Source: Amoebidium appalachense
Taxonomy: Eukaryota > Protista > Ichthyosporea
Direction: 5' to 3'
Assembly (NCBI GenBank): GCA_963693365.1
Contig: CAVNZM010000024.1
Span: forward strand, 1-64,000
Length of the DNA: 64,000 bases
Below, one piece after another: positions 18,173-49,586 of the stretch (position 1 is the first letter of the stretch; each line of letters opens with the position of its first letter). Made by a program: the position numbers and the translations under genes. Under the pieces are notes generated by a model. The model saw nothing but the letters and a program-made list of their open reading frames with translations. It did no database searches and had not been told where the DNA came from.

Positions 18173-18414
18173 GGGTACGACCGACCCCCACCCCGCCGGC
18201 CGGCCCGGAAGGACCTCTGCATGTAGCTGACGTTGCTGCCCACGTAGGCCAAGTTCTGGGCTGCACGGCTAATGTCCAACACGGTCCGGAACCTATCCCA
18301 GTGCTCGTTGGGGTGTACAATGACGGTGTGGTTGCGTGGTGCTGCCACCTGGTCCTGCCGGGGTGGTTGCCAGTACTCGGCCTCGTTGGTGTAACCCGTA
18401 CCTTGGAAATTCAT
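18169..18414 (-). CDS. Small hypothetical protein (~81 aa)
   Basis: CCACCATG start; downstream of minor capsid. Confidence 0.5.
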   Translation of the reverse strand: MNFQGTGYTNEAEYWQPPRQDQVAAPRNHTVIVHPNEHWDRFRTVLDISRAAQNLAYVGSNVSYMQRSFRAGRRGGGRSYP

Positions 18415-18455
18415 GGTGGTGGTGTATATTGGCTGGTGGTGAAAATATGCAACAC

Positions 18456-19514: not shown

Positions 19515-19595
19515 GGTGGTAGAGGGCACATATACCGTTACAAAATGCCGTACAAAAATTCAGCGTCATGTAGTAACGTGCATGCTCTTGCAACC

Positions 19596-20950
19596 ATGCC
19601 CAGATCACTCAACTGGACCGTAGCCGACGGGCTTGCGCTCACGAACCGTCGAAAAGACGGCTACTACGTGGGACTGGTGGCCAACACAACAGGCCACACA
19701 CACGATGCATACGACCTGACGTTGCCGATAACCGGACCGGCCACATTTGCCTACATGGCATGTGACCCCAGCGGCAAAATGTCGTTTGTGGACGCTGCCG
19801 ACGTGCCCACCGATGCCACCGTGCAGGCACTGGGGGCCAGGGTGGCTGCCGTGGAGGGTGAAAACACCGTGCAGAACACCGACATTGCCGGACTCAGAAC
19901 CACGACAGGGACCTTGGGCACGAGACTGGCAGTTGTGGAAGACAAGGCCACCACAGCCCTCAACACAGCCAACGGTGCCGTGACAGTCAACAGCACCCAA
20001 AACACGGACATTGTCGGCCTCAAGACCACCACAGGGAACTTGGACATGCGGCTTACTGCCGTAGAGGGTAGGGTCACCACTACCCTAGATGTGGCCAACG
20101 GGGCCGTGACGGTCAACACCACACAGAACACGGACATTGCCGGCCTCAAGACCACCACAGGGAGCCTGGACACGAGGCTGACGGCAGTGGAGAGCAAGGC
20201 CACCACAGCCCTCAGCACGGCCAACGGTGCAGTGACGGTCAACACCACCCAGGGTACGGACATTGCCGGCCTCAAGACCACCACGGGGAGCCTGGACACG
20301 AGGCTGACGGCAGTGGAGAGCAAGGCCACCACTGCCCTCAACACGGCCAACGGTGCGGTGACGGTCAACACCACGCAGAACACGGACATTGCCAGTCTGA
20401 AGAGTACCACGGGTAGCACGACACTCGGCCTCGACGTCAACCGGCTCAACACGCTCGTCGGTCTCCACGACACGGCCGTGGCTACCCTGACCACAGACAT
20501 GGGTGCCATCAAACCCCGTACTGCCGTCGGCAGACGGCATAGAGGGCATGCTGCTCAGCAACAGGCTGGCCGTACGAGGGGGGGAGCCGGCGCACGGGCC
20601 CGGCCTACCTGACGGTGAAAGTACACCATGCTGCCGCCCAGGGGTGGAACGTTGCCGGAAAGGCTGCATGGGAGGACACGATCAGCATATACAGGTCAAC
20701 GTACGAGCCAGTCATTAAACCCCAGTGTATATCATCGCCGGGGGCCGAACTCATGGTGATTGTCTACTTCTGGACACTAGGGACCAACGGTGTGCGCAAG
20801 TATGTCACCCACGTGGGCTCCCTACCCATGTCGTGCGTGTCCCCGTGGGACATAAACAACATCTACCCGTTTGCGCTGGGCTCCGGCATGTTGGAGGGGG
20901 CCATTGTTCCCACAGGAACGGGACTGACTTTCGGTTCAAGCTCAAGGTAA
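19596..20950 (+). CDS. Fibre/spike protein with 42-aa coiled-coil stalk repeats; 3' part frameshifted (true end possibly ~21090-21145)
   Basis: QNTDIAGLKTTTGSLDTRLTAVESKATTALNTANGAVTVNTT repeats. Reading continues through ORFs 20503-20718 and 20615-20950 after shifts near 20515 and 20600. Confidence 0.7.
19872..20420 (+). repeat. 126-bp coding tandem repeat, ~4.4 copies
   Basis: Unit starts at 19872, 19998, 20124, 20250, 20376. Confidence 0.9.
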
Positions 20951-21190
20951 GGCTGACAAAGCTCTTCCAGACCGACACAGAGAGCTATGCAAGCGTTGCC
21001 GGCTACATCAAACTTTGACGTGCTGGTGTTGGCAAAGTACCCACGGTTTACCGACTATTCAAGGACAAGGCCAGCATTCCCCGCACCAACATAGTTACCC
21101 ACCCTCCCACCTTCTATGCAGACCTTCGAATGAACGAGGGGTAGCGGCCCGGGGTCAAAGGATTATTTCTAACACACTAGTAAACCCACC

Positions 21191-31439: not shown

Positions 31440-31650
31440 TTTCTGGCCAATGAGGACCGTAATCTTACTATCTGTGTCCTTATTGGACGCCTAGAACCAA
31501 ATGTGCCAGTCTGAATTCCGATTGGCCGCCTTGTGCGGCAATTGGCTTTTTGGAGCTGCATTATCATTGGCCGCCTTGCGCATCCGTAATACTATTGGAC
31601 GCCTTGTACAAGGAATTCAGAATTCGAATTCCTATTGGACGCCTTGCGCA
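31440..31650 (-). promoter_or_regulatory. Array of CCAAT-containing motifs AGGCG(T/G)CCAAT
   Basis: ATTGG(A/C)CGCCT at 31482, 31521, 31566, 31594, 31634. Confidence 0.7.
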
Positions 31651-31779
31651 AACCTTCGCATTCCTTTGATCCGCACTTGTGTGCATGTACGCACCACATG
31701 TACGCGTACACGTACGCGTACACGTGTTCCGCCCTCTCTCTCTAATTATTTTAATATTTAATTAAAACCACGTGTTTAT

Positions 31780-31780
<1 letters not shown>

Positions 31781-31810
<30 letters not shown>
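31781..31810 (+). repeat. (CA)15 microsatellite
   Basis: Directly visible. Confidence 0.95.
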
Positions 31811-31812
<2 letters not shown>

Positions 31813-31917
31813 GTGTGCACGTGCTCATGTACATATATCCACCCATATCACATATATCCCATATCGCGATATGTGTACACAGATATCACATATCTCATAT
31901 TCACATATCCCATATCC

Positions 31918-31987
31918 TAAGGGGTGCGGTTAATGGTCGAGGTGACGTCACCTGTGACGTCACGTCGACCATGTGCCGCGCCCCTTA
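31918..31987. repeat. 70-bp imperfect palindrome with two TGACGTCA cores, overlapping the DDE gene stop codon
   Basis: TAAGGGGTGCGGTTAATGGTCGA-GGTGACGTCACCTGTGACGTCACG-TCGACCATGTGCCGCGCCCCTTA. Confidence 0.85.
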
Positions 31988-34900
31988 TTGTAGTCTCTCG
32001 TGCAGTTCGGCCTTCAGTTTCTCGTTGAGGGCCGCCAGCACTTTATCCGCCCTATCTCGGGCGGCCTGGAGGACCGCGGGATTGGACGTGAGGACCTCTG
32101 GAAGCACAGGGGTGGCTGGGGCCTGGGGCTTCACAGGCTTCTGCTTGGCAGGACGCTGTGTGGCTACCAGCTCCTTCCGCTGCCAGGCCTTTGGGTCCGT
32201 GCTGAACAGCTGCCATCGGGGATCTCCGGTGGTGGGGGCGGTGCGCGTGTACGCACGCGCCAGGTCGGTGGTGGCGTGCCCCCTGTTGAGGGCATCGATG
32301 ACGGCCGTGCGTCCCGTTTCGGTCAGCCGCCACAGGGCGCCGGCGTGGCTGATAAAGCACGCGGGGTTCTCCAGTATGCTGTTGCGCAGGCGGCGCAGCT
32401 GGGACCGTGGCCAGTTCGGGTTATCGGGCCACTTGAGGGGTTTGTCCTGGGGGTTTGTGATCTTGACAACGCGAGTGTAGATGGTGCCTTCTGGTGCAAA
32501 GAAGCCCATGCGGTCCTTGCGGATGTTGGCGTTGCGGGTGATGTTGATGGGCAGACCATAGCCGCACTTCTTCATCCAGTTGACGATGTAGTCCGGGTTC
32601 CGCTCGATCAGTGAGCAGCCGTCCTGGATCAGCTTGCGAAGGTGGTAGTAGGTCTTGGGGTAGTGGGAGCGCACGTGCTGCTTGACAAAGCCGATGGCCA
32701 ACTCGGCGACGTTGTACTTGGAGTTGTAGGGGGGAGCCACTGGAAGCGCCAATGCTTGCTCACGGCGAGCTGCCTGATGTCCGGCAAGTTTTCCTTGGTG
32801 TTGTGCACGGGGGCGTTGTCCATGCACAGGATTGCGCCGTTCGTGCGTGGGTCGGCCCCCAGGACGTACTCCAAGAACACGTAGAACGCACGACCGTCAA
32901 GCTCGTCAGGCACCAGGCTTTCGTTGGAAAGCTCGGCTTGGGGCTCGCGGCCGTGGGGGGCGAGAGGCCGGTAGTTGAACAGCGGGTCGTCGGACGGCCG
33001 AGGACTGAGAATCAGGTAGTTGACCACGGCCCGCATGTTTCCATCGTTGTCCGCCTTGGGGAACCCCACGGAAATCAGCAGCTTTGTGCCGATGCCGCGC
33101 AGCTTGGGCTTGGGGGTTTTGTGATGCGAGCCGCGGTGCCCCCACACGCGGCCAGGGGTCTCATCCAGGTACACGGAGGCCTCGTCGATGAAAAGCAGAT
33201 TCTGGCGGTTGTCCTGCAGGTGTGGCAAGCGCTCGACCTCAAAGTACTGGGTGGCGGCAGCCACGGACCTTACAAAGGTGTTTGTCGGGTCGCCCTCCCC
33301 ACGGCGGTACGTCAGCCCAAGCCGCTTGCGCCACTTGTTGAGCGTGGACACCGACACGTTCATGCGCTCGGATTCGGGCAGGCCAGGCAGTGCGTTGTAG
33401 GCGGCCATGAGCTTCTCGCTGGTCAGGTTGGGTACCTTGGTCGTGAGCTCGTAGAGCACGATCTTCTGTGTGTCCGTCAGCTTGGTGGATTTCTCATGGG
33501 CCCTTGCGAGGTTGGTGCCGTGCCGGCTGCTGAACTCGCCGTGCTTGAGGGCACGTGCTATTACCCGCCGCACGGTCTGCGTGCTGACCTTGAGCCTCTG
33601 TGCGGTGTCCGTGAGCCTCTCGTCCCGCAGGTGCGCAAGCAGGATGGCATCGCGGATGTCCTGCGTGTATGCCTTCCCACGGCCCAGGCGTCCTACGGGC
33701 TGTTCGGCAGTTCTCAGCGTGTGCACTTCGACGTCTGCGGGCAGGGGCTGTGCGAGGGGTTCCTCCCCGTACCAACGCCCCCCGGCACCAGCAGCAGGCG
33801 GGCGCCCCCGGGGCCCACCACCCACAGGGCCTCCTCTGCCCCCAGGGCGACCTTGTTGTCGGGGAGGAGCCTCAGCGTGAAGGAGCCTTTCGATGCCACG
33901 GTGCTTCGGGATGGCAGGGGTTCATAGACCACGGAGCGGACAGGCGAAGGGCTGTCAGGCGCGTCGACGTTGAGAAGATCACCTGTGGACTCCAAGGGCA
34001 TCAGCCGCTGGCGCTCCAGCTGGTACAGCGCCAGAGGGGGGTTTCCCCCGGGCTGGGGTGGGTAGAACCCCGCGACCGTGGCCTTAGACTTGTACACAAC
34101 GGGCCTGCCCGTGTGCTCGATGACGTGCATCGCCACGAGCATTGCGCGCGGGACAAAGCGGTCGAGCCTGACGACCAGGTACGTCATCGGCCGGAAGTGC
34201 TTGGAGATGTGCGGATCCACAAACACGATCCCGCACACCGAGTCCGTAATGTCGGATGTTGTGTTGACGGCGGTGCCCGGCGACCGGGGCCTCCCGGCGG
34301 TGTACAGGCCCGCAAGCTGCTCCCGCTTCCGGTCGGCCCAGGCGGCGATGGCCGTGCGAGCGTTGTCCGGGCTCACGCCCAGCGCATGTGCAACCGTGGC
34401 AAGTTCCTGGGCGGTGGAGTCGGCAGTGGTGGGTGTGGGCGCCTCTGCTCTTCGGCGGGTCGAAACGGCATTGGCAACAAGACGGCTGCGGGCGTCATCG
34501 AAACGGGTTTCTGAGAGCTCAGGCCGGCCGAGATCGGCGTAGAAGCGTTTGTGCATCTCCCTTTCATCATCGATGCTGGTGGCTCCGGGGGGGCGTGTGA
34601 CCCGAGGTGAATACGCTTACCATCTCGAAGGTCAAGATCCTGGTCATCGGCAAGGGCCCGCAGGATGTGCTGGACACGGCCGTAGTACTCCTGCCCTGAA
34701 AGGTCGCGCGCAACACTCATGGTCAGTTCCTTGAGGGCCTGCCGCATGGTCGCACGATCGGTACCGGCTGCGCGCAGCTCCTTGGCCAGCTTTGCACGCT
34801 CGGCGATGAGTGTCTGGAGCGCGTGCTTGTAGGGGTAGGCCCGTTCGTCGTCCTCGCGGTGGACTCCTTCCACAAACTCAGGCCGTGGCAGCCCGGGCAC

Positions 34901-35563
34901 CATCAGGGCGAGCGCCTCGAGCATGTTGGGCTCTCCGGGATCATCGGAGTCTTCCGGCGCTTTGCCCTCCTTTGCTTTCTGGGAATCCCTTACGTTTTTT
35001 CCAGCTATGCGCTGGGCCTCCGCAAGGGCGGCATACGCCATTCGGATGCGCTCGGGATGGTCCGGTGTCGTGGGGTGGCGTGTCTTCCGATTTTCCACCT
35101 CCTTGGCGAAAAGCGCGTGGCCCCTAGAGTCCGTGACACCCTCGAGCTTGACCAGGCGCGGCGTGCTTGTGCGAACATACGCCTTGCTCAGTATCCCCTG
35201 AACGTTCTCGGCAGTTACACGGGCATCATCGAGGGGTTCTTGGGTCAGGTCCTTGCCTGCAAGCTCCTCCCACCAGGTCTCGGATCGGGACGGTGGGGTT
35301 TGTGTAGGCGGGGCGGGTGCGTACATGGGATCACGGACACGGAATCGCAGGTTCAGATTGCCATCCCTGGCCTGCCTATCGGTGCCGGTGTTGTATGACG
35401 GGTGACGCGGGTCCTGCACCAGCTGTGCGAGGGGGAAAGGGTCATCGGCTCGGGATTCTAGAAAGAAGCGGCCAGGATTCTCGGCACTTGGCCAGGCATC
35501 GGCCACGACTTTATTGGACTGAGTGTCCACCACAACATACCCCGGTCTACGGGACCGGTCCAT
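31985..35563 (-). CDS. Giant IS630/Tc1-mariner-family DDE transposase-like protein (~1193 aa reconstructed; three single-base homopolymer frameshifts)
   Basis: HTH RGKAYTQDIRDAI...TAQRLKVSTQTVRRVI; LFIDEAS; CMDNAPVH; LPP/YNSKYNVAE. ORFs 34373-35563, 33714-34556, 32629-33825 and 31985-32827 join at G7 (34587-93), C6 (33778-83) and G6 (32729-34). Confidence 0.8.
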
Positions 35564-35582
35564 GCCCCAGGCGTGGAAAATC

Positions 35583-36368
35583 TCACAATGGGCACAGATG
35601 GAAGGCTAGGACGCCTAAGTCACTGACGGCGTACTCGAATCGGATGAGCTTGTTACTGGACATGTGTATCCTGACGTTGCTGTTCACGCACGCGCCCTTG
35701 CAGAACGCGCTGAGATACTTGACCATGAACTGCGCCTTGACCTTCTCGATCGGGACCTTCTTGAACTCCACACCCGTGGCTTTTCCCCTTCTGATCTTCA
35801 GCGCGTCCTCTCCCTTTTCGGGGATGTCTATCCTGCACTTCCCCAGCGCGCCCAGCGCACGCAGCCGGAGCGTGCGATCCGCGACAGTGATCTTCACGAC
35901 ATTGGACACGGCCTGGATGTCCCTCAGGTAGCGCGCAAGCTCCTGGGCGTCGATGACAAAGACACAGTCGTAATCGAGCGATGGGGCGTCGAGGATTTGC
36001 CGCACCTCCTTGACCAGGGTCATGTTGTACACGATGCAGCTGCTGTCATCGGTGGTCTCCATCTTGACCTGCAGGGTGTCGTCCGTGGCGGTGAATGCGA
36101 TGCTGTTGAAGCGGTGGGCGGTGGCGTTCTTGACGATCTTGTACAGGTTCTGGATCTCGAACGTGGCGGTCACATCGTTGGGTACGTCGAAGATCTCAAA
36201 CTTGTCGGGGTGCAGCTTCATGTAGACGTAGGCCTTCTTTGCATTGTCAACTGCGGGCAGAACAAAGCCCTCCTTCCCACTGAACAGCACGGTCACCTCG
36301 CCGAGGATGTCCTTGACGCTGTCGATGGCGCATTTGAACGTGTTGACTTGCACGGTCTTGACGAGCAT
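35583..36368 (-). CDS. PCNA: Proliferating cell nuclear antigen (DNA sliding clamp)
   Basis: 261 aa; FKCAIDSVKDILGEV, VYMKL...FEIF, YLRDIQAVSNVVKI, FMVKYLSAFCK, IRFEYAVSDLGVLAFHLCP; CCACCATG start. Confidence 0.92.
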   Translation of the reverse strand: MLVKTVQVNTFKCAIDSVKDILGEVTVLFSGKEGFVLPAVDNAKKAYVYMKLHPDKFEIFDVPNDVTATFEIQNLYKIVKNATAHRFNSIAFTATDDTLQVKMETTDDSSCIVYNMTLVKEVRQILDAPSLDYDCVFVIDAQELARYLRDIQAVSNVVKITVADRTLRLRALGALGKCRIDIPEKGEDALKIRRGKATGVEFKKVPIEKVKAQFMVKYLSAFCKGACVNSNVRIHMSSNKLIRFEYAVSDLGVLAFHLCPL

Positions 36369-36404
36369 GGTGGGGGACTGACGCTGAACGTGCCGGCAAC
36401 GCTG

Positions 36405-36414
36405 TTTTTATACC
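36405..36414 (-). promoter_or_regulatory. TATA-like box GGTATAAAAA upstream of PCNA
   Basis: ~37 bp before the ATG; same motif at 53757, 54794 and 54848. Confidence 0.55.
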
Positions 36415-36456
36415 CTTGGGGGCCCGGGGGTTGGGGCTTTTTTCTATACAACCGGT

Positions 36457-37287
36457 ATGAATTCTGGATCCATGGACCGCACGCTGCTGTACATGGGCAT
36501 CATCGCAGCTGGCTTCTACTACTACAACAAGAGGGCGTCGGCATGGCCAACAGCACCTACGTTCCAGCCTGAGGACAGTGACCCGGGGCAACAGCCCGGA
36601 TTCAACAACGACCCTGGCATGCAGTGGGGGCTGCAACCCTCCGACAGCCCATTTGACCGAGACCTGGCACTTGCATACCGGGACAGTGCTAGGGGGTTCG
36701 ACGACGATACCGTCGCCATGGGCAACCAGGAGTACTTTGGAGACGAGGAGGACGAGTACGTGCTCGGCTACGACGAGTACGCCACGGCCGACGGCGGGGG
36801 CACGGTCGTCAACACGGGCAACGGGCCAGTTACGGTACCGCAGGCGCCTCCTTCGACGCGGGCTGTGCAGCAGGCTTCGGTGGTTCCCTCAGGCACACCG
36901 TCAGCGCTCATCGGCGCGCCCGCACGTCCGGCTGTGCACCCCAACCTTGTGCAGACCGTGCATCGGGCAGGGCCAAACGTCAGCAACTCCACCATGGACG
37001 CGATCTCACAGATCCGGGGCACGGGCCTCTTCACGGGCAGCGAGATGCGGCCGCGTGAGAGGCTGAGCGTGGCGAAGCTGACGCCGCAGGAGGTGCTTGC
37101 CGCCACGACACGTCCCCGCAACGTGGCGGCACCCGCCGTGTACAAGAAGAACGGCAACCTTCAGCTACGACCCGACCCAGCGATCCACAGCGCCGGGTTG
37201 GACAACCTCCCGTCCATCAGCACACAGCGCGACCTCAGGCAGCGCGAGTCGTTCTCAAACGAGCTGGCGTCGACACTGCTTTTTTGA
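36457..37287 (+). CDS. NCLDV minor capsid protein P11-like, N-terminal membrane anchor
   Basis: LLYMGIIAAGFYYY TM segment; C-terminal LTPQEVL...KKNGNLQLRPDPAI resembles the P11 NANLQLRS.PP motif. Confidence 0.6.
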   Translation: MNSGSMDRTLLYMGIIAAGFYYYNKRASAWPTAPTFQPEDSDPGQQPGFNNDPGMQWGLQPSDSPFDRDLALAYRDSARGFDDDTVAMGNQEYFGDEEDEYVLGYDEYATADGGGTVVNTGNGPVTVPQAPPSTRAVQQASVVPSGTPSALIGAPARPAVHPNLVQTVHRAGPNVSNSTMDAISQIRGTGLFTGSEMRPRERLSVAKLTPQEVLAATTRPRNVAAPAVYKKNGNLQLRPDPAIHSAGLDNLPSISTQRDLRQRESFSNELASTLLF

Positions 37288-37344
37288 ACGAAATAAAGGG
37301 GGGGGATGAAACCCCCCCCCCCCCCCCCCTCCCCAAGATGCACC

Positions 37345-37566
37345 GACCGTGTTCTCCCCCCCGAGCAGCCCGACCCGCCCGGACCGTTTTCTTACCAAAC
37401 CAGAGAGAACAGGACGGCGGGCGCGACCCTTTGGCCCGCGAATTCGTAGAGAAAACGGTCCTCGGCCCCACCATGTCTCCCGCGGACAAAGAGAACACCG
37501 TGGCACCCGTTGCAATGTCTCCGAAATTTCTAGAGAACAGGGTCGTGGGGTTGACCCTGTTCGCCC
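37345..37566 (-). repeat. Iteron-like ~42-bp-period array, copy A (inverted homolog of 59240-59464)
   Basis: AGAGAA(C/A)A at 37404, 37448, 37490, 37532; reverse complement aligns along its length with 59240-59464. Confidence 0.85.
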
Positions 37567-37669
37567 TGTCCAGGACCGCTTTTATTGAATAAAGGAGCCC
37601 CTCCCGGAATATAGGCAAGCAAAATATTCGATCAGTGGATTGCATGATTATCATCGGCGCTGTAAGCAA

Positions 37670-38976
37670 ATGTTGCGTTGCAAAGAACTGGTGTGCATGG
37701 AGCAGGCACTCGTGCCCCACTCCATCTCATTCGACACGGGCACCCTGAACCTCGAGGATGCGGCAGCGTGCGTGGCCCAAGTCCTCCCCTACTCCGTTCC
37801 GGTTGAGGGGCCGTGCGCGGGGCTGACGCTGGGCGCGGCGGTGGGGGTCCTGAACAGCGCGCTGACGGTCAAGGACGATAACGTGTTGTCCACGGTGAAT
37901 GAAATCAACGCAACATTGAGAAGCCATCAAGCTAGTCTGGCTCTCAAGGCTGAGAAGACTGCACTGGCAGCGCTTGCCGAGGTGGTTAATACAAAAGCAG
38001 ATGAAGTTAGTGTGGCGGAGCGCCTAGACCAGAAAGCAGATAAGATCACGATCGACACAACTCTCGATGGCATCACGCAGGAGTTTGGTGACCGGTGCAC
38101 AAACATCGAACAGCAAGTCCTTCTAAAAGAAGAGAAGAGTGTGGTGGCCCAGCTCCGCAGTGACTTCACCGAACGGACTGTCTATGTAGACAGCGAATTG
38201 TCGAACAGGGAGACCAAGGCCGTGGTGGGGAAGCTCAGAAACAACTTTACTGATAGGACCGCCTATGTCGATGGCGAACTCGCACCTTAGGGAGTCCAAG
38301 GCCGTGGTTGCAACATTAAGAACCGATTTCACTAACAGAACCGTTTACGTAGACGGCCATTGCTAGCAAGGCAAGCGTGAAGCCACCATTGTGGATGCTT
38401 TGCAGAGCACCGTGCAGACACGCACGGCACAACCCTAGCGGCGAAAGCAGAACTCAAGTTACGTAGACGGCCTTCTAGCCAAAAAGCGGAAGCTACCATT
38501 GTGGATGCCTTGACCAGCTGCGCACCGATTGCACAACCCTAGCGGCGAAAGCAGACTCACCTACGTTAACGGGCTTCTGGTCAAAAAGGGATTTTTTTTT
38601 TTTTTTTGTGTCGGCGAAAGCAGACTCAAGCACTGTGCAGGCACTCCAAACAACCGTCAAGACTCAAGGCACTACGCTGGCTGCGAAAGCCGATAAATGC
38701 TATTGCGATACGCAGTTGAACACCAAAGCAAACACCAGCGTGGTCGGCACCTACACCACCCCCACCACGGGCCCCGCCGCCACCAAAACCACCATCTCAG
38801 CCGCCGTGCTCGCGCTGAACGCGAGCGCCCCGCCGGCCAACGTGGGCACGTGGGCCGCGCCGACCGTGGGGCCCGCCGCGGGCAAGGCGACGATCGCCGA
38901 GGCCGTGCTGGCCATCAACGACCATGTGGACCGGCTGACGTCGGCGCTCGAGGCGCTGGTCGCCCGGCTTGAGTAA
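37670..38976 (+). pseudogene. Fibre-like coiled-coil protein with KAD/KAE repeats; multiple frameshifts at 38285-38610
   Basis: ORFs 37640-38290 and 38608-38976 share KAD and TAYVD repeats; the region between is similar but broken, with a T16 run. Confidence 0.7.
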
Positions 38977-38988
38977 AGTCTGACAAGT

Positions 38989-40617
38989 TCACGCATTTAT
39001 GTTGAGATACCAGCCGGCCCAGTCGCACCAGCGCCACGTCAGGTTCCGTGTGGCGTCATAGTAGTCCACGTCCTTGTACTGCTGCGCGTCGACGGTGCCA
39101 TCTGGCTTTGCGCCCTCGAGGTCGTCCAGGCGCACGATGCTTCCCGTGTAGTAGTTGCCAGTCGTTTGTGCGGGCCACGGGGAGCCCGTGTAGAAGGAGG
39201 ACACCAGAGGTTCATTGTTGTCGCTTGTAAAATCAAATTTCGCACACGAAACGCCTGGGTTGGCGGCCTCCATGAGGCGCCCCATTTCGTTTGTGTCCCA
39301 GAACGGTTCCGTACTATCCCTGACCGACTGCTTGGTTTTTGCGGTGTTGATTGCCACATTATAAGGCAGTGCCACGTATCTGTACTTTGTAGCCTGAGGG
39401 ACAACACAGACAAACTTTGTTTTGTGGCCGTACGATACGCTTATCTCATCCATGCCGACGTCCAATAGTATGTTCTCGTTGTTGATGGCGCCTCCGAAAA
39501 TATAGGAATCGCTTCTCCCGTCGCTGACAAGATAGGCGGGAACGGGTGTGTTCGAGAGCCAACTGAGGGACTCCGTGCAGAGGGCGCCTGGTGGGGCGGT
39601 CCAGCTATCCGATCCGAAGCTCGGGTACCTCCTCTCAACGGCGACAAAGCCCGGCTTGGGGACAAGGTAGAAGAAGTTGTCCGTTTGGAACATGTTGCGG
39701 TACAGAGAGGGCATGCCTGCGACACCTGGTGCTGCATACGTGCCTGCAAGGGACCCGGTGGTAACATTGACACATCGGACCGTTCCAAATTTCGAGCCGT
39801 GCGCCCACGTGAAGCACAAAGCTGCGAAGGTAGGACCCTCCTTGTAGATTATCCCAAACGTCACGGCCCCGGGCGGCACGCGCGGGCTGCGGACCCAGCG
39901 GTAGCCGGGCCCGTCGATCTCGTTGAGCACGAGCGAGCGGGCGTCGCGGCCGGGCACGCCCAGGTCGTACGTCCACAGCTCGATGTCCTTGACGGCGTGC
40001 TCGGTGTAGTCGGCCGTGGATGTGTAGGCGCACAGCGAGAGAAAGGTACTGGCGGTGGATGAGGGGGTCAGGTCGGCCAGTGTGTATGTCAGGCGCAGCC
40101 GGCCGAGCGAACAGAACACGTAGCCGGCGTCCGGGGCGATGCTTATGACGCACGTCTGCCAGGCGCCGTTGGTGCCGTTGGCCGGCCATCCCAGGAAGTT
40201 GAACGAGCCGTTGGGCTGGTAGGACACGACCTTCCCGGACCCCGGATTGAACTGCAGGCGGAACTCCTTGCCGGCGACGGCTCCGTTTGGGAACGAGTTG
40301 GCCTGGTTCCACGACACGTACAGGGCCTCCTTCTGCGGGGTGGACCCGGCGCCGGTCCTGAACTTGAAGGACAGCACGAAGCGCTGCCCGGGGCACACGG
40401 GCCAGTACACGTAGCCGGTCTGGTTGGCGGCGCGGTTGGTGAGGCGGATCTCGGCATTGGCCCTGTTCATGTAGGCGCTGCCGCCGAGCGTGCCGGTGGT
40501 GGGGCACGCCCAGTTGGTGCGGGCCCAGTTCTCGGGGGTCTCCTGGAGCACACATCGGGGGGGCGAGCCCTCGATGTTGAGGATGCGCTGTGTGAGGCGG
40601 GCGAGGCGGTCCGCCAT
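38989..40617 (-). CDS. Lectin-domain fibre/adhesin paralog 1 (L-type lectin-like + DM9-like), 542 aa
   Basis: Starts MADRLARLTQRI; GGSAYMNRANAEIRLT...QTGYVYW...F.LSFKF; EHAVKDI; VPPGAVTFG. Confidence 0.75.
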   Translation of the reverse strand: MADRLARLTQRILNIEGSPPRCVLQETPENWARTNWACPTTGTLGGSAYMNRANAEIRLTNRAANQTGYVYWPVCPGQRFVLSFKFRTGAGSTPQKEALYVSWNQANSFPNGAVAGKEFRLQFNPGSGKVVSYQPNGSFNFLGWPANGTNGAWQTCVISIAPDAGYVFCSLGRLRLTYTLADLTPSSTASTFLSLCAYTSTADYTEHAVKDIELWTYDLGVPGRDARSLVLNEIDGPGYRWVRSPRVPPGAVTFGIIYKEGPTFAALCFTWAHGSKFGTVRCVNVTTGSLAGTYAAPGVAGMPSLYRNMFQTDNFFYLVPKPGFVAVERRYPSFGSDSWTAPPGALCTESLSWLSNTPVPAYLVSDGRSDSYIFGGAINNENILLDVGMDEISVSYGHKTKFVCVVPQATKYRYVALPYNVAINTAKTKQSVRDSTEPFWDTNEMGRLMEAANPGVSCAKFDFTSDNNEPLVSSFYTGSPWPAQTTGNYYTGSIVRLDDLEGAKPDGTVDAQQYKDVDYYDATRNLTWRWCDWAGWYLNINA

Positions 40618-40650
40618 TGAGTAGGGCAAAACAAATGTGCGCAGTGGGCA

Positions 40651-42252
40651 ATGGCGGACCGGCTGGCGACGCTGGACGCGCGAATCGACAAGCTGGCAGG
40701 GCGGCACACGACGACGCTGGTGCTTGAGAACGCCGAAACGTGGAGCGCCACGCAGCAGGGCACGGCGTGGGTGGCGCCGGCGGCGGGCGTGCTGGGGGGG
40801 ACTGCGTACATGAACAGGGCGGGGGGGGAGATCCGGCTGACGGACAAGCAGAGCAGCCAGCACGGCTATGTGGTGTGGGTAATGCCACCCGTGGACAACT
40901 TCCAGCTTGCTTTCCAGTTCAGGGCCGGCGACGGCACGACCAGCGGTGCCGATGCCTTGTGGGCCAACTGGTTTAGCTTGGGGCAACGGTACTCCGGCCA
41001 GCGATACCAGGGGGAAGACGAGCTGCTGCAGCCCGGGGCGTACCGGCTGACGTTTGACGAGTACGAGGCGCAGTCGCGGGTGTACTTTGGCGCCACGGTG
41101 CTGGGCACAGCCACGTACCCCCGAGCCGGCACCAACGGGGTGTGGTGGACGTGCATGGTGCGGTTTGCCGCCAAGACCAACGGGCTGCAGGTGCTGCTGG
41201 ACAAGGGAGCGGGCTGGACGCAGCTGCACACCCAGACACCCACACAGCCTGCCCCCACGCGCGCGACCATCCTCTCACTGTGCGCACGCACGGGCGGGCT
41301 CTCGTGCGAGCACGCCGTGCGCAACATCACGCTCACCACCAACACGCCGTCGCCCGGGTGCGACGCCGCGCTGACGGCCATCAACGAGCTCGAGTTTCCC
41401 ACGCACACGCTTGTGCGTGCGAGCCGACCGCCGCCGGGGGCCGTGACGTTTGGGGTACATGTTAATCTGGGGCCGATCTATGCGGGGTTCTGCGCATCAG
41501 CACACGGCATGGTGCCGTGCAAGATTTCGGCGATCGGAAGCCCGATGACGGCGTACTACGCCCTGGGTGGGGCGTCCTACTCAAGCACAACGTTCTTCTA
41601 TGTGGTGCCCAAGGCCGGGTTTGTTGCAACGCGCAGGCGGCAGATCGGGGGACCGCCCAATAGCGCGCTGTACATCGGCAAACCACGGGCAGCGCAAGAG
41701 CGTGGCGCCCTGTACCTCATCTCTCTGGAACGCACGGACACGTTCACGTACGGCTCGTACGAGCCGGGGGGTTCGATCCTGTGTGAATACATGGGCGCTA
41801 TCACGCTTACAGACGACGGGTCGTGGGAGTACGTGTGCGTCGTCCCGCAGACCACCAAGGGGCGGTACGTGACGCTCCCACGAGGCGTCTGCACAAGTTC
41901 TGTAGGTGGTGAGTGGTCACCGGCGACTACCTTCACGGGCCTGGACGTGGACGAGATCGTGGCGGAGGGCGAGCGCATGGCGGCCGCAAAAGGGGTCACG
42001 CTCATGGCCGTGGACTACTCGTACAAGCCGGCACTGGGGCGGGGGTACTACTTCAAGCCGGCCCCGTCGTGGCCGGCCAAGACCACGTGGCGGGACGGGG
42101 CGTGCATCATCCGCACCGACGTGTTCGAGAACGCCAAGCCGCGTGTATCGCCAACGGCGTACACCAACGCCGACTACACGGACACCAACCTGCTGGTGTG
42201 GCGCTGGCACGCTGCCTGTGGCTGGTACCTGAACATGGCCATGCTCGCCTAG
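40651..42252 (+). CDS. Lectin-domain fibre/adhesin paralog 2 (533 aa)
   Basis: EIRLTDKQSSQHGYVVW...FQFRAGDGTTSGADA (legume-lectin-like); PPGAVTFG...PIYAG...GMVPCKI (DM9-like). Confidence 0.8.
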   Translation: MADRLATLDARIDKLAGRHTTTLVLENAETWSATQQGTAWVAPAAGVLGGTAYMNRAGGEIRLTDKQSSQHGYVVWVMPPVDNFQLAFQFRAGDGTTSGADALWANWFSLGQRYSGQRYQGEDELLQPGAYRLTFDEYEAQSRVYFGATVLGTATYPRAGTNGVWWTCMVRFAAKTNGLQVLLDKGAGWTQLHTQTPTQPAPTRATILSLCARTGGLSCEHAVRNITLTTNTPSPGCDAALTAINELEFPTHTLVRASRPPPGAVTFGVHVNLGPIYAGFCASAHGMVPCKISAIGSPMTAYYALGGASYSSTTFFYVVPKAGFVATRRRQIGGPPNSALYIGKPRAAQERGALYLISLERTDTFTYGSYEPGGSILCEYMGAITLTDDGSWEYVCVVPQTTKGRYVTLPRGVCTSSVGGEWSPATTFTGLDVDEIVAEGERMAAAKGVTLMAVDYSYKPALGRGYYFKPAPSWPAKTTWRDGACIIRTDVFENAKPRVSPTAYTNADYTDTNLLVWRWHAACGWYLNMAMLA

Positions 42253-42275
42253 CACATTTTGTGGGGGACTGCATT

Positions 42276-44660
42276 ATGGGCGACCGTGTGAGTGCCCTTA
42301 CAGCTCGCATTGCGTGGCTGCCCACCAGCCAGCAGGGATCGCGGTGCCTCGTCTGGGAGACCCCGGACGTGTGGGCCGCCACGGGCTGGCAGGCCCCGGC
42401 CACAGGCCACCTGGGAGGATGTGCGTACTTGGACAAGACAGGGGGGGAGATCCGGCTGACCCCGGGCACGGCCAGCCAGCTGGGCTACGTGTTCTGGCCC
42501 CTGCATGCGGGCCGCCGGTTTACGCTCAGCTTCGAGGTGCGGGTCAAGCGCTTCACGGCGCTGCCGGGAACCAAGATATGGGCGGCCGTGTGGAGTCCCG
42601 TTCTGGGGCACGCATCGAGCAGTGGAAGCACCAACGTGGACCTTCGGCTGACTATGGACGGCCAGGCCGGTACGCTGAGCACCGAGACGCTCACGCAGTC
42701 CGTGGATCTCGACTCCACGTACACGACGACGGGGGCCTGGACGCCAGTTGTGATTGACGTGGTCCGGGACCAGCGGGTGACGTACGTGCACGGGGCAGCC
42801 ACAAAGACCGTCACAAGCACGGCTGTGACGACGTCCGTGTCGCCCAGCAGCAGCTACGTGTGCATCGGCGCACAGACGGGCAGCAGCTACAGCGAGGTGG
42901 GCGTGCGCAACGTGGCGCTGCACTGCATGGATCCCGAAGCCATCGGGCGGGACGTGCGGCGGCTGGCGTGCAACGAGGTGGAGTTTGAGACCTACACGCT
43001 GGTGCGCCGGGCGGTGCCACCGCGCAATGCCGTGATGTTCCAGTGCGACGCGTATGGACCGGTGTGGGGGGGCTTCTGTGTGACTAAGGAGCACGGGCTG
43101 ATGCCATGCAAGATAGTGAGCAAGAACAACACCGAGCCGGTGGCTGTCTACGGGGTCGGAACCTTAGACATGTCCACATCCGATTTCGTTGATAAACCCG
43201 AAGGCGAGTCCCGTCAGATAACGGCGTCCGTATTCTTCTACCTAGTCCCAAAGCCGGGCTTCGTGGCGTGCCGGCGGCCCCAGATCAGAAGTGTGGCTGC
43301 CGGGGCCGTGGCCGTAACGTGTGCAAGCATGTCAGGGAGCCGCACGCCGCTGTACCTGATCTACTGCGAGTACAGCAACGCGTTCGGACGGTACGACCCC
43401 AGCAAGTTTGCCGAGGTGCAGTCGTCGCAGGACAGGTGGACACGCATGCTTGACTGCGGGAGTTGGGACTACGTGTGCATTGTGCCGCAGACCACCCGAG
43501 CCCCCTGGGTACAGCTGGCAAGGAGAACTTTTTCGGCGGGTGCCTCGGTATCCAACCCAGCTGGAACAAACCATTGGGCGGCAATAGTCGCGTACGCAGA
43601 CACAAAGGGTTACACAAAGGTTTGCTACGAAACCACCAGCAGTGCGCCCAATCTTAACTGTGTGTCTGGTGACATCAACACAAACGATGTCATGGTCCCC
43701 AATGGGGTGCGGTCGGCAGAATCTGTGGTGGTGAGGGCGGATCTTTTGACCAAGACCATGCCGGGCGCAGCGACAAACACCTCGAGCTACGTGTCTACCA
43801 CACTTGTCAACTCGTGTGTGCCATGGCGCTGGAACAACTGGTCGGGGTGGTACGTCTACATGCCGTATGCACGCTCGCGCTGGTACGTGTTTGACCAGCT
43901 GGCCGACCACAGCACCAGCAACACATTCAACGACTGGACAGATGCCAGCAATTTCGGATACGCAAGCCCGCAGCAATGCATGGCACGTGCAGAGGCCACC
44001 TCGGGGTGTCGGCAATTTGGCTTTGCGCCCGTCGTCAATGTAGGCGGTGTCTATGGCTACTGCTATATGCGCAAGGCGGTGGCAGCGTGGCCGTTGCAGG
44101 CCTGGACAAATCCACCCGGTATTTCCGCCTGGACTTACAGTACGCAGCAAACATATATCATGGAGCCTGATGTTCCAGTCGCCTACCGGAACCAAGGAGT
44201 CCTGTGCGAATGGAACGGCTATTACATTCGGAGATGGGCTGTTGAACTTGGCACGTACCCCATGTCGCCCTGGGGCTCGGCATCGGGGTTTGTGACCACT
44301 GTCGCAAAGTGGATCTGGTCCGTGCCTAACGCGCATCTGGGTTGTATGCCCAGCTGGACGTACGGCTACAAAACCTACGACAACGGGAGCTCCCCCCTTG
44401 ATGTTGTGATTCATGCGCTGTGCGACAAGACGATGCAAGTGAGTGTGAACGGCATTAAGCTCGGAGTGGTAGTCGGTGGCTGGACGACCACCTCCTACCC
44501 CAAGATCAATGCTACCCTACAGCCCTTTGGAAACGTCGTTAGTTTCGTGGCCAATAACGGCACAGCAGCAAGCACCGCGGGAGTGCTGATTGCTGTGGTG
44601 CGCAGGGACAATGGCGCCGTGTTGTTTGTGAGCGATGGGTCATGGACGAGTTCCATTTAA
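42276..44660 (+). CDS. Lectin-domain fibre/adhesin paralog 3 with added PAN/apple-like and C-terminal beta-sandwich domains (794 aa)
   Basis: Same N-terminal architecture; QQCMARAEATSGCRQFGF...CYMRK; AKWIW...CDK...VNG...GW...AGVLIAV...LFVSDGSW. Confidence 0.8.
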   Translation: MGDRVSALTARIAWLPTSQQGSRCLVWETPDVWAATGWQAPATGHLGGCAYLDKTGGEIRLTPGTASQLGYVFWPLHAGRRFTLSFEVRVKRFTALPGTKIWAAVWSPVLGHASSSGSTNVDLRLTMDGQAGTLSTETLTQSVDLDSTYTTTGAWTPVVIDVVRDQRVTYVHGAATKTVTSTAVTTSVSPSSSYVCIGAQTGSSYSEVGVRNVALHCMDPEAIGRDVRRLACNEVEFETYTLVRRAVPPRNAVMFQCDAYGPVWGGFCVTKEHGLMPCKIVSKNNTEPVAVYGVGTLDMSTSDFVDKPEGESRQITASVFFYLVPKPGFVACRRPQIRSVAAGAVAVTCASMSGSRTPLYLIYCEYSNAFGRYDPSKFAEVQSSQDRWTRMLDCGSWDYVCIVPQTTRAPWVQLARRTFSAGASVSNPAGTNHWAAIVAYADTKGYTKVCYETTSSAPNLNCVSGDINTNDVMVPNGVRSAESVVVRADLLTKTMPGAATNTSSYVSTTLVNSCVPWRWNNWSGWYVYMPYARSRWYVFDQLADHSTSNTFNDWTDASNFGYASPQQCMARAEATSGCRQFGFAPVVNVGGVYGYCYMRKAVAAWPLQAWTNPPGISAWTYSTQQTYIMEPDVPVAYRNQGVLCEWNGYYIRRWAVELGTYPMSPWGSASGFVTTVAKWIWSVPNAHLGCMPSWTYGYKTYDNGSSPLDVVIHALCDKTMQVSVNGIKLGVVVGGWTTTSYPKINATLQPFGNVVSFVANNGTAASTAGVLIAVVRRDNGAVLFVSDGSWTSSI

Positions 44661-44667
44661 GGACAAA

Positions 44668-45057
44668 ATGTCGCCCCCATGTATGCGGCGGCAGTCGGTT
44701 CTCTCCGAGGGCCTCGGGCTCGGCCGGCTGATGCGCAACGACGTGTACGCGCGCGTGCGGTCGCTGAAGGAGGACGTGGCGCGCCTGGAGCACGAGAACG
44801 ACCGCAAGGCATCGTTGGTTGAGCTGTACGTGCGCGAGATCGACGCCATGCGCAAGGACCTGCATGCCGTGTACGACAAGGTGGGCGAGCTTATTGACAA
44901 CCTCGCCGACATGCAGCACGACCACAACGACTTTGTGCGGGAGATCGTGCGGCTGCGTTGGACGGTCATGCACATGGGCGAGGACCTGCGCCGCATGCAG
45001 CAGCATCCACCCGTGGAGCCCTCCTCGCCACGGTGGCAGTGGAACGCGCCCCGCTAG
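44668..45057 (+). CDS. Coiled-coil protein (129 aa)
   Basis: Heptad pattern; strong GC3 bias. Confidence 0.7.
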   Translation: MSPPCMRRQSVLSEGLGLGRLMRNDVYARVRSLKEDVARLEHENDRKASLVELYVREIDAMRKDLHAVYDKVGELIDNLADMQHDHNDFVREIVRLRWTVMHMGEDLRRMQQHPPVEPSSPRWQWNAPR

Positions 45058-45079
45058 CGGTATTTTCCGCGCGTCAGGT

Positions 45080-46051
45080 ATGTCGTATGAACCCTCGACG
45101 CTGAAGGGATACCTAGCCGCCAACCATGATCTGCGGGCAAATGTTGTGAATCGCGGCAAACCGGCGCAGGCCAAGAATCAAGTCGAAGCACTCGGTGGGG
45201 GAAACCCGCCGATCCTTGCCCCCGAAGACCGCCAGAAGCTCCTGGGATGGCTGGCACGCGCCAGCACCGACCTCAAAGAGATACTGCTCGTGGACCGCGA
45301 GGAGGTGACCACGACCCATGCTCACATGGCTGCAAACCAGAAGGTGCTGCTGTACGGACCGGCCGGTGGCGGCAAGCTGCACTGTGTCTTCTCGGTGTGT
45401 CGGCGGGTCGGCGTGTTTCCGTGGGTGGTCATGGTAGGCGAGCTGCTGAACACGGAGAACCTGCCCTTGCTAAACTGGATTGCACAGCACGATCGACGAG
45501 GAGCCCTTGTTGTGCGAGATGCCCACAACCTGACGGAGCAGAGCATCTCGGTGCTTGTGCTCGGCCTAGCGTACGCGATTCCCATCATCGGGCTCGCGAG
45601 CACGGCATCGGAGGCGTCGTGTGCGACACGCAAGTACTTTGATGCGACTGTACACTGGCCGGCTCTGCGCGAGTCGGAGGCTAAGCTGTGTATGCAGCTG
45701 TTCGAGACCGAATTACTTGAAAGGGATCAGGATGTGTTCAAGGGCCTCCTTGTTGCCGCTGAAGACCTGACGGTTGGTGCACTGGTGGGAGCCCTACAGG
45801 TGGCAAGACGTACCCTCGCCGAACAAATGTCTGTTTGTGCAGTCGGGAGGGGCGATGACGGTGCGGTGTTTTTTGACACGCGTGCTGATGTACAAAGAGT
45901 TGTTCTAGCGGATGCCGGCGACAAGTTAAACTGGAACGCGCTTAGCTCAAGCGTACCCCATACCATCTATGCAGTCATGCTCCTGTTGGCATGGGTCCAG
46001 GGCATGCTCTTGTCACCTGTCGACGCAACCGATTTTGCTTGCTACAGGTAG
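45080..46051 (+). CDS. Divergent AAA+ ATPase, RFC clamp-loader small-subunit-like
   Basis: VLLYGPAGGGK (Walker A lacking T/S), degenerate Walker B ALVVRDAHNLT, PIIGLAS, WPAL..SE. Confidence 0.6.
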   Translation: MSYEPSTLKGYLAANHDLRANVVNRGKPAQAKNQVEALGGGNPPILAPEDRQKLLGWLARASTDLKEILLVDREEVTTTHAHMAANQKVLLYGPAGGGKLHCVFSVCRRVGVFPWVVMVGELLNTENLPLLNWIAQHDRRGALVVRDAHNLTEQSISVLVLGLAYAIPIIGLASTASEASCATRKYFDATVHWPALRESEAKLCMQLFETELLERDQDVFKGLLVAAEDLTVGALVGALQVARRTLAEQMSVCAVGRGDDGAVFFDTRADVQRVVLADAGDKLNWNALSSSVPHTIYAVMLLLAWVQGMLLSPVDATDFACYR

Positions 46052-46052
46052 A

Positions 46053-47090
46053 ATGGATCTGGACGAGTACACCCGAAGTCTGCTTACCATAGACCTCAAT
46101 CCGGGGCCTATTAGTAAAGAAGAGGCAAGAGACTATTCCGAATCGAATGTTTCATCGCTTCGCTGCCTCCTGTTTGCCATCCAGCTTTGGCTGGTCCGCG
46201 ATCCTCAAACCCCCTTGGACCTGGTCGTGGATGACTCAGGGCAGACCCCGGCGCTGGTGGTTCCTGGTCTGGATTGGCGCGTTTTGAAGCTCCCGCTCTT
46301 TGCCCCGGCTTTCGCGATCCCGTATCCGGTTGCCAAACCAACGTCGTTTGTGCAGCACGCGAACGACAGAACCTACGACAAAGACGAGCTTGCCGATCTG
46401 GTGACGGCCATGGTCCCGGGCATCCGGAGCATGATGCTCACCCGGCCCCGCACGCACGCACGGCACCCCGTGCTGCCGGCCACCATGGCCGAGGCTGTGA
46501 CGCGCGTGGACCCCGCCTTCGACAAGGTGGCCGCCCAGTTCGCCGACCTGGTGCGGGCGAGCACCCCGAAGGACTCGATGGAGGTGCTCAAGCGCGACCG
46601 CGAGATCAAGCTGCTGCAGCAGTGCCTGCTGGAGCTCGAGCTCGAGTACTTCCGGCTGCAGGCCGAGAACGAGCACCTGAAGGAGCAGGAGGCCGCCATG
46701 GAGAAGAACTTCCTGCTGCCATGGTTCAAAGCGCAGGAGGACGTCTCGCAGCGCATGGCAATGTTCGAGGCGGCCGAGCGCGACGAGTACTCGCGCATGC
46801 GCAACTTCCAGCAGCAGGTGTCGGTGCAGGCGTTCAACAGCAGCCTGCAGGCGCAGAACAACGCGCTGCTTGCGGCGTCGGGTGCCGCCATCAACGCTCG
46901 CCCGACGGCGGACTTTGCTGCGATGCTCTCCCGCAAGCGCGAGCTGGATCTGGACGACTTCGAGGAGAGCATGAAGCGCATACGCATGGCAGAGGACCAG
47001 CAGAAGGCAGCCACCATCAACCCCGACACCTACCGTGACAACATGACCATGCGTGAGGGCGTGACGTTCCCGTATTCGGCTGCAAAGTGA
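46053..47090 (+). CDS. Hypothetical coiled-coil protein (345 aa)
   Basis: Long ORF with strong codon bias in the 3' two-thirds. Confidence 0.75.
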   Translation: MDLDEYTRSLLTIDLNPGPISKEEARDYSESNVSSLRCLLFAIQLWLVRDPQTPLDLVVDDSGQTPALVVPGLDWRVLKLPLFAPAFAIPYPVAKPTSFVQHANDRTYDKDELADLVTAMVPGIRSMMLTRPRTHARHPVLPATMAEAVTRVDPAFDKVAAQFADLVRASTPKDSMEVLKRDREIKLLQQCLLELELEYFRLQAENEHLKEQEAAMEKNFLLPWFKAQEDVSQRMAMFEAAERDEYSRMRNFQQQVSVQAFNSSLQAQNNALLAASGAAINARPTADFAAMLSRKRELDLDDFEESMKRIRMAEDQQKAATINPDTYRDNMTMREGVTFPYSAAK

Positions 47091-47162
47091 ACAAAACCTA
47101 AAAACAGAGTTTGCGTTTCGGCTGCAAGGTGAGCGCCGGCGCCGAAAATGCATGCAAGAACC

Positions 47163-47513
47163 ATGACCCGCCGGCGACACTCCTCCACGGCTAAAACCTG
47201 CAAGAAACGCAAGGGAAAGAGACGTTGCTCAAGCAGGCACACCCACAAACACCCGGCCAAGCGGCGTAGCTCGCGCAGCGACAGAGAGCGCAGGCGCCAT
47301 CGGTACAGGACGCAGTGGCGCACCAAGTACCTCGTGCTGCCTTCCCGCTTTTATGGTGACAGGCAGCGCACATCTCCAAGCGCTCCCACCACAAAGTATG
47401 ACCCACCGATGCGCACGACCTCGAAGGCTTCAGGGTGTGGCTACAATGTCGGCCCCGGGGAAACTGGTCGGCCATGCAAAAACATCCATGACGTAGCCGA
47501 ACCGGAGTTTTGA
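47163..47513 (+). CDS. Small Arg/Lys/Ser-rich basic protein
   Basis: ACCATG start; RRRHSS...KKRKGKRR...RERRRHRYR. Confidence 0.55.
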   Translation: MTRRRHSSTAKTCKKRKGKRRCSSRHTHKHPAKRRSSRSDRERRRHRYRTQWRTKYLVLPSRFYGDRQRTSPSAPTTKYDPPMRTTSKASGCGYNVGPGETGRPCKNIHDVAEPEF

Positions 47514-47671
47514 TCTGGATCTAATTATATCTGATTTTCAATCGGTTGCGCGCGATCCGATTGGTCGGCATGGGTCGCCCGATCTGATTGGCTGGCATAA
47601 AACGTGGCTTCCTCACTTCGCTCCGGATCGCGCCGGCACGGCCAGCCCCATCTGAACTGCCTGCCGCGAAC

Positions 47672-48382: not shown

Positions 48383-48410
48383 AGCAGTCGCACGGGCAGT
48401 GCCCGTCACA

Positions 48411-49088: not shown

Positions 49089-49299
49089 GCTTCCTGTTCA
49101 CAAAGAACTTTAGGACCGGCAGCGGTACGAAGACAAGAACGTAGGGGTGGACGGCAAGGTAGACAAGCAGCAGACACCTGCTCAGCCAGTGCGCGTGACT
49201 CCTGTGGTCGGTGTGTACGTGTTGTGGTTCGCGCTGTTGTAGTGCTGGCGAAAACGGGTCGGAGGAGTGCATGGCGGTGTTTGGTGTAGGGCATATACA

Positions 49300-49533: not shown

Positions 49534-49586
49534 TCCCGTGTTTATTTGAATAAAACTGCCCTGCCAGAGGGAAGAGAAATCCACCC

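Follow-up and report, generated by a model that had tools for sequence, protein, structure and literature searches.

What does a DDE gene of IS630/Tc1 type do when it stands, oversized and broken into four open reading frames, right behind the PCNA gene of a giant-virus-like element? The question is raised by a 64,000-nt stretch of the ichthyosporean Amoebidium appalachense (contig CAVNZM010000024.1, positions 1-64,000, assembly GCA_963693365.1), which is called the window throughout; the gene under study lies on its minus strand, at the left edge of the visible part of a nucleocytovirus-like element. An initial annotation, made from the sequence alone, had joined the four frames into one protein and proposed a domesticated transposase and candidate integrase of the element. 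Here, we report that the four frames are one gene, that the window holds a truncated copy of it, and that it belongs to a small family of proteins of 1400-1600 residues, four times as long as is usual for such transposases. By structure the protein is IS630/Tc1 transposase-like, and by context it is not an ordinary IS630/Tc1 transposon. The likeliest role for it, with a probability that we estimate as evenly balanced, is that of the enzyme that integrates the whole nucleocytovirus-like element into host chromosomes.

The frame is interrupted at three G/C homopolymers, and 1193 codons result when it is read through them:

34587..34593: homopolymer, first assembly error (7 of 8 sequencing runs)
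33778..33783: homopolymer, second assembly error (6 of 8 sequencing runs)
32729..32734: homopolymer, third assembly error (7 of 8 sequencing runs)

Twenty public sequencing runs contain the stretch, with no RNA run among those listed, and the contigs of eight of them, from five samples, were compared with the window; one of these samples may be the window's own source. Within each homopolymer, run contigs show an indel of one base relative to the window, with which the frame is open, at 32728 in seven of the eight runs, at 33777 in six and at 34586 in seven. Run X20 is without coverage at 33777, the middle break, and in X15 the indel at 34586 accounts for 1817.5 of a summed depth of 3980.8. 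Because the run contigs keep the frame open at these sites, the three breaks are assembly errors and the four open reading frames are one gene. Both the positions and the indels agree with the earlier proposal that one added base at each homopolymer joins the frames; the frameshifts, had accurate reads kept them, were to count against that proposal, and the run contigs do not keep them. Programmed frameshifting and pseudogene decay at the three sites were ruled out, the run contigs being without the breaks. By third-position G+C, the coding frame shifts at 33778-33783 and at 32729-32734, and less clearly at 34587-34593. Run X8 counts the other way, with none of the three frame-opening indels among the rows listed; two of its contigs have gaps at positions outside the listing, and its pieces end on either side of the third homopolymer and neither confirm nor clearly refute that the breaks are errors.

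The joined frame is made up of four pieces:

34590..35563, minus strand: piece 1, the start and first part of an unknown N-terminal region, with the KLEGVTDSRG motif area (family profile E 1e-10; tblastn with relative P0012 E 7e-12; alignment)
33781..34589, minus strand: piece 2, the second part of the N-terminal region (tblastn with P0012 31% over 95 residues, E 3e-6; missed by the five-member profile)
32732..33780, minus strand: piece 3, two helix-turn-helix units and the first two catalytic D residues (Pfam HTH_23 E 4e-7, DDE_3 E 1e-5)
31995..32731, minus strand: piece 4, the catalytic E and a conserved C-terminal region, truncated at a junction (profile E 1e-43, model positions 931-1132 of 1444)

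The helix-turn-helix (HTH) region begins at residue 630 and is bipartite, lying ahead of the catalytic domain; its first unit was recognised by Pfam HTH models and its second was read from a conserved stretch of the alignment. The catalytic triad consists of D794 (codon 33184-33186), D916 (32818-32820) and E955 (32702-32704), with 38 residues from the second D to E, and the motifs FIDEAS, MDNAPVH and NVAE are all present, just as the initial annotation had described them together with the HTH. Pfam DDE_3 scores above its cut-off in the relatives P0001-P0005. The NCBIfam IS630 equivalog NF033545, with a cut-off of 100 bits, is reached neither by piece 3 (67.6) nor by five full-length relatives (62.2-85.5). 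Structure prediction, which had been recommended at the outset, gave for the catalytic half a model (pLDDT 58.6) with the best Foldseek matches in PDB to Sleeping Beauty (E 1.2e-4), Mos1 and SETMAR, and in fold this half also resembles the short transposases of giant viruses; the core is thus predicted to be an RNase H-fold D-D-E domain like that of Sleeping Beauty and Mos1. For the N-terminal region, no match was found in Pfam, Atlas or PDB sequences, and the sole PHROG match, to an unnamed family, was weak (E 0.002). The structural model of the region is of low quality (pLDDT 52.5), matches only long helices (best Z 7.6) or noise, and has no bearing on the novelty of the fold; in the low-confidence model of a relative, the region of piece 2 may be beta-rich. 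An Rfam scan gave no match.

The gene is cut in the window by foreign DNA:

31994..31995: junction cutting the element inside the gene (loose contig ends at 31995 in X13, X18, X4, X1, X3 and X8)
31918..31987: hairpin with 34-nt arms (85%), at the end of the foreign DNA adjoining the gene (continues differently in X13 and X20)

In six of the eight runs, contigs match the window rightwards from 31995 and run leftwards into other sequence, in X4 for 2140 nt without branching; X20 is without coverage of the gene at the junction, and X15 is absent among the rows listed. No contig bridging 31994/31995 is present among the pieces listed. The stop codon of the 1193-codon frame (31985-31987) is foreign, because the junction lies before it. 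Since the gene is cut at this point, the real protein is likely longer, about 1400 residues or more as judged from its relatives: 235 element-encoded residues follow the catalytic E in the window versus 457-671 in the relatives. The 1193-residue frame of the initial annotation therefore stands as a read-through frame and fails as a protein length, its stop being supplied by foreign DNA, and the extension of about 190 residues taken there for the C-terminal end is not confirmed; the homopolymers, motifs and spacing reported with it hold. The remainder of the 3' part was not found elsewhere in the window. The junction was ruled out as the element's own integration end, for it lies within the gene; it is either an insertion or rearrangement peculiar to this copy or a join made in assembly. 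No inverted copy of the foreign end, at 8 letters or more, occurs left of the junction. This foreign end (31918-31994) is very deep in X20 (3710) and could be the end of a Polinton or of a Helitron-like element.

Relatives of the same unusual length were sought among proteins. A length-free HMMER scan of 1.84 billion representatives, with the HTH and the first two D residues as the query, gave seven matches, and the four strong ones (E < 1e-49; 1619, 1390, 1533 and 738 residues) all belong to one long family. Two word searches, limited to lengths of 584-2000 and 764-2433 residues, added P0001 (1432 residues) and P0012 (1403 residues). No close short relative appeared in the unfiltered 1.84-billion scan; the 5.8-billion set was not searched for shorter ones. 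The family consists of six clusters, five of them full-length (1390-1619 residues) and one beginning inside the second HTH. The full-length relatives are 37-44% identical in the core, and the overall identity range of the relatives is 27-44%. All five share one design, with about 560-630 unknown residues followed by two HTH units, an intact D-D-E and a long tail; the triad is intact in all six relatives, and the HTH pair is found in the window and in every full-length relative. In the alignment the N-terminal starts line up, and a motif around KLEG.TDSRG is common to the family. The first and second D are 121-164 residues apart. From the second D to E there are 39 residues in five relatives and 41 in one, and because of this D-38-E, compared across the aligned sequences, is no family mark. 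A tblastn search with P0012, which is intact, recovers every one of the four pieces, in order (E 7e-12, 3e-6, 1e-109), and piece 3 is 44% identical to it. A profile built from the five full-length relatives, with the window left out, picks pieces 1, 3 and 4 out of 850 frames and misses piece 2. The N-terminal motif, the HTH pair, the acidic residues and the tail are all kept in the five relatives, so selection appears to have acted for a long time, within the long design, on catalysis and end binding. The homolog search suggested earlier thus yielded close relatives of full length rather than stand-alone cores of about 400 residues, the other outcome that was to count against the initial proposal, and the unknown N-terminal region of about 600 residues recurs in them at 560-630 residues, again without a family match.

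Grouped with P0012 are three short proteins annotated in assemblies of Daphnia sinensis and D. pulex. Two of them (KAI9549612.1, KAI9549614.1) have near-adjacent locus tags on a single contig of 183 kb, and EFX61888.1 lies on a 34.7-kb scaffold; they look like fragments into which gene calling has split the same long gene, belonging to the animal or to an organism living on it. P0002 comes from a 22-kb contig. Prokaryote genomes gave only four distant short matches (29-38%), with frames of 156-201 codons in the three measured. Intruder DD38E elements, which stand close to DD34E/Tc1, are described as 1.5-1.7 kb long with terminal repeats (PMC7731502); their 38-residue spacing matches the window copy only, and the match looks incidental. 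Membership in DD38E/Intruder was rejected, the gene exceeding 3.5 kb and the spacing being 39-41 in the relatives, which sets it apart from these elements as described. No long family of IS630/Tc1 viral integrases was found in the parts of the open literature covered by our search (including PMC11890097, PMC5294986 and 10.1101/2025.04.19.649669), and the family is apparently undescribed so far. Two distant proteins, P0006 (724 residues, E 2e-6) and P0008 (652 residues, E 2e-4), combine an HTH and a stretched DDE domain with a chromodomain at the C-terminus, and are putative IS630-type enzymes with a chromatin-reading domain.

Ordinary IS630/Tc1 transposons have terminal repeats close to the gene (PMC7731502) and leave TA duplications (10.1101/2024.09.03.611062). 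The 5' surroundings of the gene in the window are as follows:

35583..36368, minus strand: PCNA gene, complete to its last residues, the upstream neighbour (Pfam PCNA_N and PCNA_C; relatives 44-49%)
35564..35582, minus strand: 19-nt gap from the PCNA stop to the DDE start (no TA dinucleotide, no repeat partner)

The DDE start directly behind the PCNA stop, in the same orientation, had been noticed initially and is confirmed with a measured gap of 19 nt. The nearest TA dinucleotides lie inside the two flanking coding regions, and so short a gap is usual in this element, nine of the 13 gaps measured between neighbouring element genes being at most 158 nt. No repeat pairs with the 19-nt gap, either among the 25 longest of 83 inverted pairs or in a self-BLAST of 31995-64000, and no terminal inverted repeat was seen on the 5' side of the gene, the 3' flank lying outside the window; the earlier statement that such repeats are lacking accordingly holds for the 5' side and extends no further. 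Among 12 PCNA relatives, unnamed or environmental, in the matches listed, the C-termini end where that of the window PCNA does. Single unbranched contigs run through gene, gap and PCNA (X4 32800-36033, X1 32800-37038, X3 33025-36336), and the depth of the gene/PCNA contigs equals that of far parts of the element (82.8 versus 84 in X1, 81.6 versus 81 in X3). No copies with different flanks were found at the 5' boundary in X1, X3 and X4, contigs being prone to drop rare variants. Since the gap has no TA and unbranched contigs of even depth join the gene to PCNA and beyond, the DDE gene behaves as one fixed resident gene per element and not as a free insertion sequence. A long IS630/Tc1-type protein as a resident gene, the core of the initial annotation, is thus borne out by the PCNA gap, the contig continuity and the relatives.

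The same observations bear on the alternative that the gene is a selfish, unusually large IS630/Tc1 passenger, perhaps with a downstream Fanzor, whose left end is hidden or decayed in the end of PCNA. We regard this as unlikely: the upstream gap leaves 19 nt without a TA, PCNA is whole to its last residue, the contigs are unbranched at the 5' boundary with gene depth equal to backbone depth, no partner repeat exists in 31995-64000, and the known passengers are about 340 residues long. In its favour, giant viruses commonly carry IS630/Tc1 passengers (10.1101/2024.09.03.611062; PMC11544213), and an Atlas cluster holds 97 viral DDE_3 proteins of about 343 residues. The 3' flank, where a Fanzor partner could lie, is outside the window, and no Fanzor/TnpB family was detected among the 55 window frames scanned. 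Moreover, contigs of X1, X3, X4, X8 and X13 break at 32797-32829, where a 33-nt piece in X4 has a depth of 867 versus about 500; with its depth nearly doubled, a second sequence, perhaps a paralogue or a sister element, carries the same codons for the second catalytic motif. Apart from this, contigs of X13 depart from the gene at 33100 and 35481 into at least 255 unrelated letters, as expected if some copies have insertions or breakpoints there.

If the resident gene serves as the integrase of the element, the mechanism would be as follows. The linear viral DNA would carry inverted repeats at its far ends, to which the HTH pair would bind, and the RNase H-fold core would join these ends to host DNA, probably at TA with TA duplication by the rule of the superfamily. 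As for the added regions at the N- and C-termini, they would keep the two distant ends in contact or steer the complex. The enzyme is placed at the far ends of the whole element because the end-binding and catalytic parts are kept and no transposon end lies beside the gene; the loss of the nearby ends of the original transposon would be old and would predate the divergence of the relatives, which are now 27-44% identical. A broader version of the integrase proposal, in which a virus lineage has rebuilt an IS630/Tc1 transposase into an integrase of 1400-1600 residues with two new domains that pastes genomes at TA, with dozens of fresh copies here and relatives in other freshwater hosts (the Daphnia assemblies), is offered tentatively, as somewhat less probable than its core.

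A conserved single-copy gene co-oriented with PCNA would fit equally well a resident enzyme acting on the viral DNA itself, in concatemer cutting or the processing of genome ends, with integration left to another enzyme or to chance. The end-binding bipartite HTH kept in the window and in all five full-length relatives argues otherwise, and we know of no IS630/Tc1 enzyme with a role in viral-DNA processing in a virus, which also counts against this alternative. Among the matches listed, 12 PCNA relatives (44-49%) stand against six DDE clusters, so the gene may be patchy in the manner of a lifestyle gene, subject to contig-size bias. On the other hand, other giant viruses integrate through tyrosine recombinases, as proposed for phaeoviruses, or through retroviral-type integrases, to which punuivirus integration is attributed (PMC13236599, PMC12993054). 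On balance, viral-DNA processing seems rather unlikely.

We consider distinctly unlikely a third alternative, namely that the whole is a giant Tc1-type DNA transposon with virus-derived cargo, no longer or never particle-forming, and the protein its transposase. Neither a capsid, a family B polymerase, an A32 ATPase nor VLTF3 was recognised in 31995-64000, and the high, even depth is that of a young repeat family. These 32 kb are only part of the element, though, the gene content and density are nucleocytovirus-like, and the proteins at 38989-44660 resemble fibres. Mechanically, such a transposon would differ little from an element integrated by the same enzyme.

Known systems provide precedents for parts of the integrase proposal. 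The enzymes of the IS630/Tc1/mariner superfamily (IS630, Sleeping Beauty, Mos1; DDE_3) likewise have an RNase H-fold D-D-E domain preceded by two HTH units. They are about 340 residues long, whereas the proteins here have 1390-1619 and add conserved N- and C-terminal regions without a family match, and their terminal repeats are nearby, with none on the 5' side here. Endogenous nimaviruses of sesarmid crabs carry a Ginger2-like DDE integrase and 46-bp inverted repeats and insert in TA-rich repeats (PMC10871703). They exemplify the mechanism proposed here, a large DNA virus with a co-opted cut-and-paste enzyme, but belong to another virus group with another transposase superfamily, and their ends are known where ours are only predicted. 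Teratorn of medaka, a piggyBac-herpesvirus fusion with a viral genome of about 180 kb that multiplies in the host genome, likewise has a transposase gene embedded in a viral genome; it differs in joining piggyBac to an alloherpesvirus, and its abstract does not mention long accessory regions like those described here (PMC10175614). The Chlamydomonas punuivirus is an integrated nucleocytovirus with terminal inverted repeats and IS630/Tc1 genes (10.1101/2024.09.03.611062; PMC12993054). In Amoebidium itself, giant endogenous viral elements and adintoviruses have been described: PCNA and D5 primase occur in gene-dense inserts, next to which lie polinton-like viruses that bear Dam, and the window shows a like mixture of giant-virus and Dam-bearing Polinton-like DNA; "recombinases, integrases" are enriched in these inserts, and the available text names no IS630/Tc1 enzyme, ends or mechanism (PMC11244446). 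Viruses with a co-opted DDE integration enzyme are therefore known (Teratorn, sesarmid nimaviruses, punuiviruses), and one of IS630/Tc1 type was not found in the portions of the literature searched.

In addition to the unseen 3' flank and the second sequence with the same catalytic motif, several observations weigh against the integrase proposal. In the Chlamydomonas punuivirus, the IS630/Tc1 genes are multi-copy selfish Fanzor passengers and the virus leaves 6-bp duplications, as far as the available text goes (10.1101/2024.09.03.611062). The ends of the element in Amoebidium lie outside the window, so inverted repeats and a TA duplication are unseen, and the rest of the element may carry another integrase. 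The capsid and polymerase genes that would prove a virus are absent from the window's part of the element. Depth, by contrast, counts on the supporting side: contigs of the element exceed the window-identical contigs left of it about 20-30-fold (1993-2619 versus 76-99 in X15; 81-106 versus 3.4 in X3), a hint at many near-identical young copies, although contig depth is not copy number and could reflect free viral DNA. Queries with piece 3, with PCNA, with alignments of the family and of PCNA, and with a degenerate motif located no relative in viral contigs, and none was located in metagenome contigs either, so a viral setting and a single-copy state would be presumptions for the five full-length relatives.

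The route of most giant viruses into host chromosomes is open, and the long DDE family provides a named candidate. Its function as an integrase predicts inverted repeats and a TA duplication at the element ends; if true, giant viruses would have a third latency route, and a Tc1-type enzyme that moves very large cargo would exist in nature. Users of Sleeping Beauty-type vectors would have an interest in such an enzyme if it is adapted to very long DNA. Even without an integrase role, a conserved IS630/Tc1 family of 1400-1600 residues with two uncharacterised regions did not appear in the literature searched.

The gene is set in a window composed of unlike blocks, two of them virus-like:

31995..64000: gene-dense nucleocytovirus-like element (PCNA, YqaJ exonuclease, DUF5760, two DUF5906 (D5-like), Fic, patatin, DUF559)
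10614..31994: Polinton/adintovirus-like neighbour (A32 ATPase 16145-16888, retroviral-type integrase 24779-26098, Dam methylase 26462-27007)

DUF5760 is a family that we take to be typical of nucleocytoviruses. The observed/expected ratio of CpG is about 1.0 in 31995-64000 versus about 0.7 to the left. At 38989-44660, three related long proteins (542, 533 and 794 residues) are clustered, one with a weak lectin-fold match, and these repeated proteins are possible attachment fibres; to judge from read depth and loose contig ends, copies probably vary in this region. A 228-nt repeat occurs at 37341-37565 and, in inverted orientation, at 59240-59463 (72%), and four short G+C-rich intergenic repeats lie within 59163-63183, near 59180, 61370, 62480 and 63100.

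The Polinton-like block directly abuts the virus-like element; where relatives of the block occur in the runs, they deviate from the window sequence at many positions. A probable capsid of this block, without a family match, is located at 14384-16132. Two convergent genes at 28244-31650 (360 and about 305 residues) have no family match and are separated by TG repeats; CCAAT-like boxes were seen by eye ahead of each, and the depth here is unlike that of the rest of the block.

The window is a patchwork, because it also contains, at 3-10613, an A+T-rich block (about 33% G+C) between 58-nt inverted repeats. A decayed atp6-like piece lies at 6115-6456 (Pfam E 0.005; all six weak PDB matches are to ATP synthase), and a stretch at about 4790-4960, without a database match, is presumably a decayed nad1-like piece, recognised by eye from a motif. 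Amoebidium has linear mitochondrial chromosomes with terminal repeats, which the block at 3-10613 resembles (PMC2518934); it is either an inserted mitochondrial chromosome or an assembly join.

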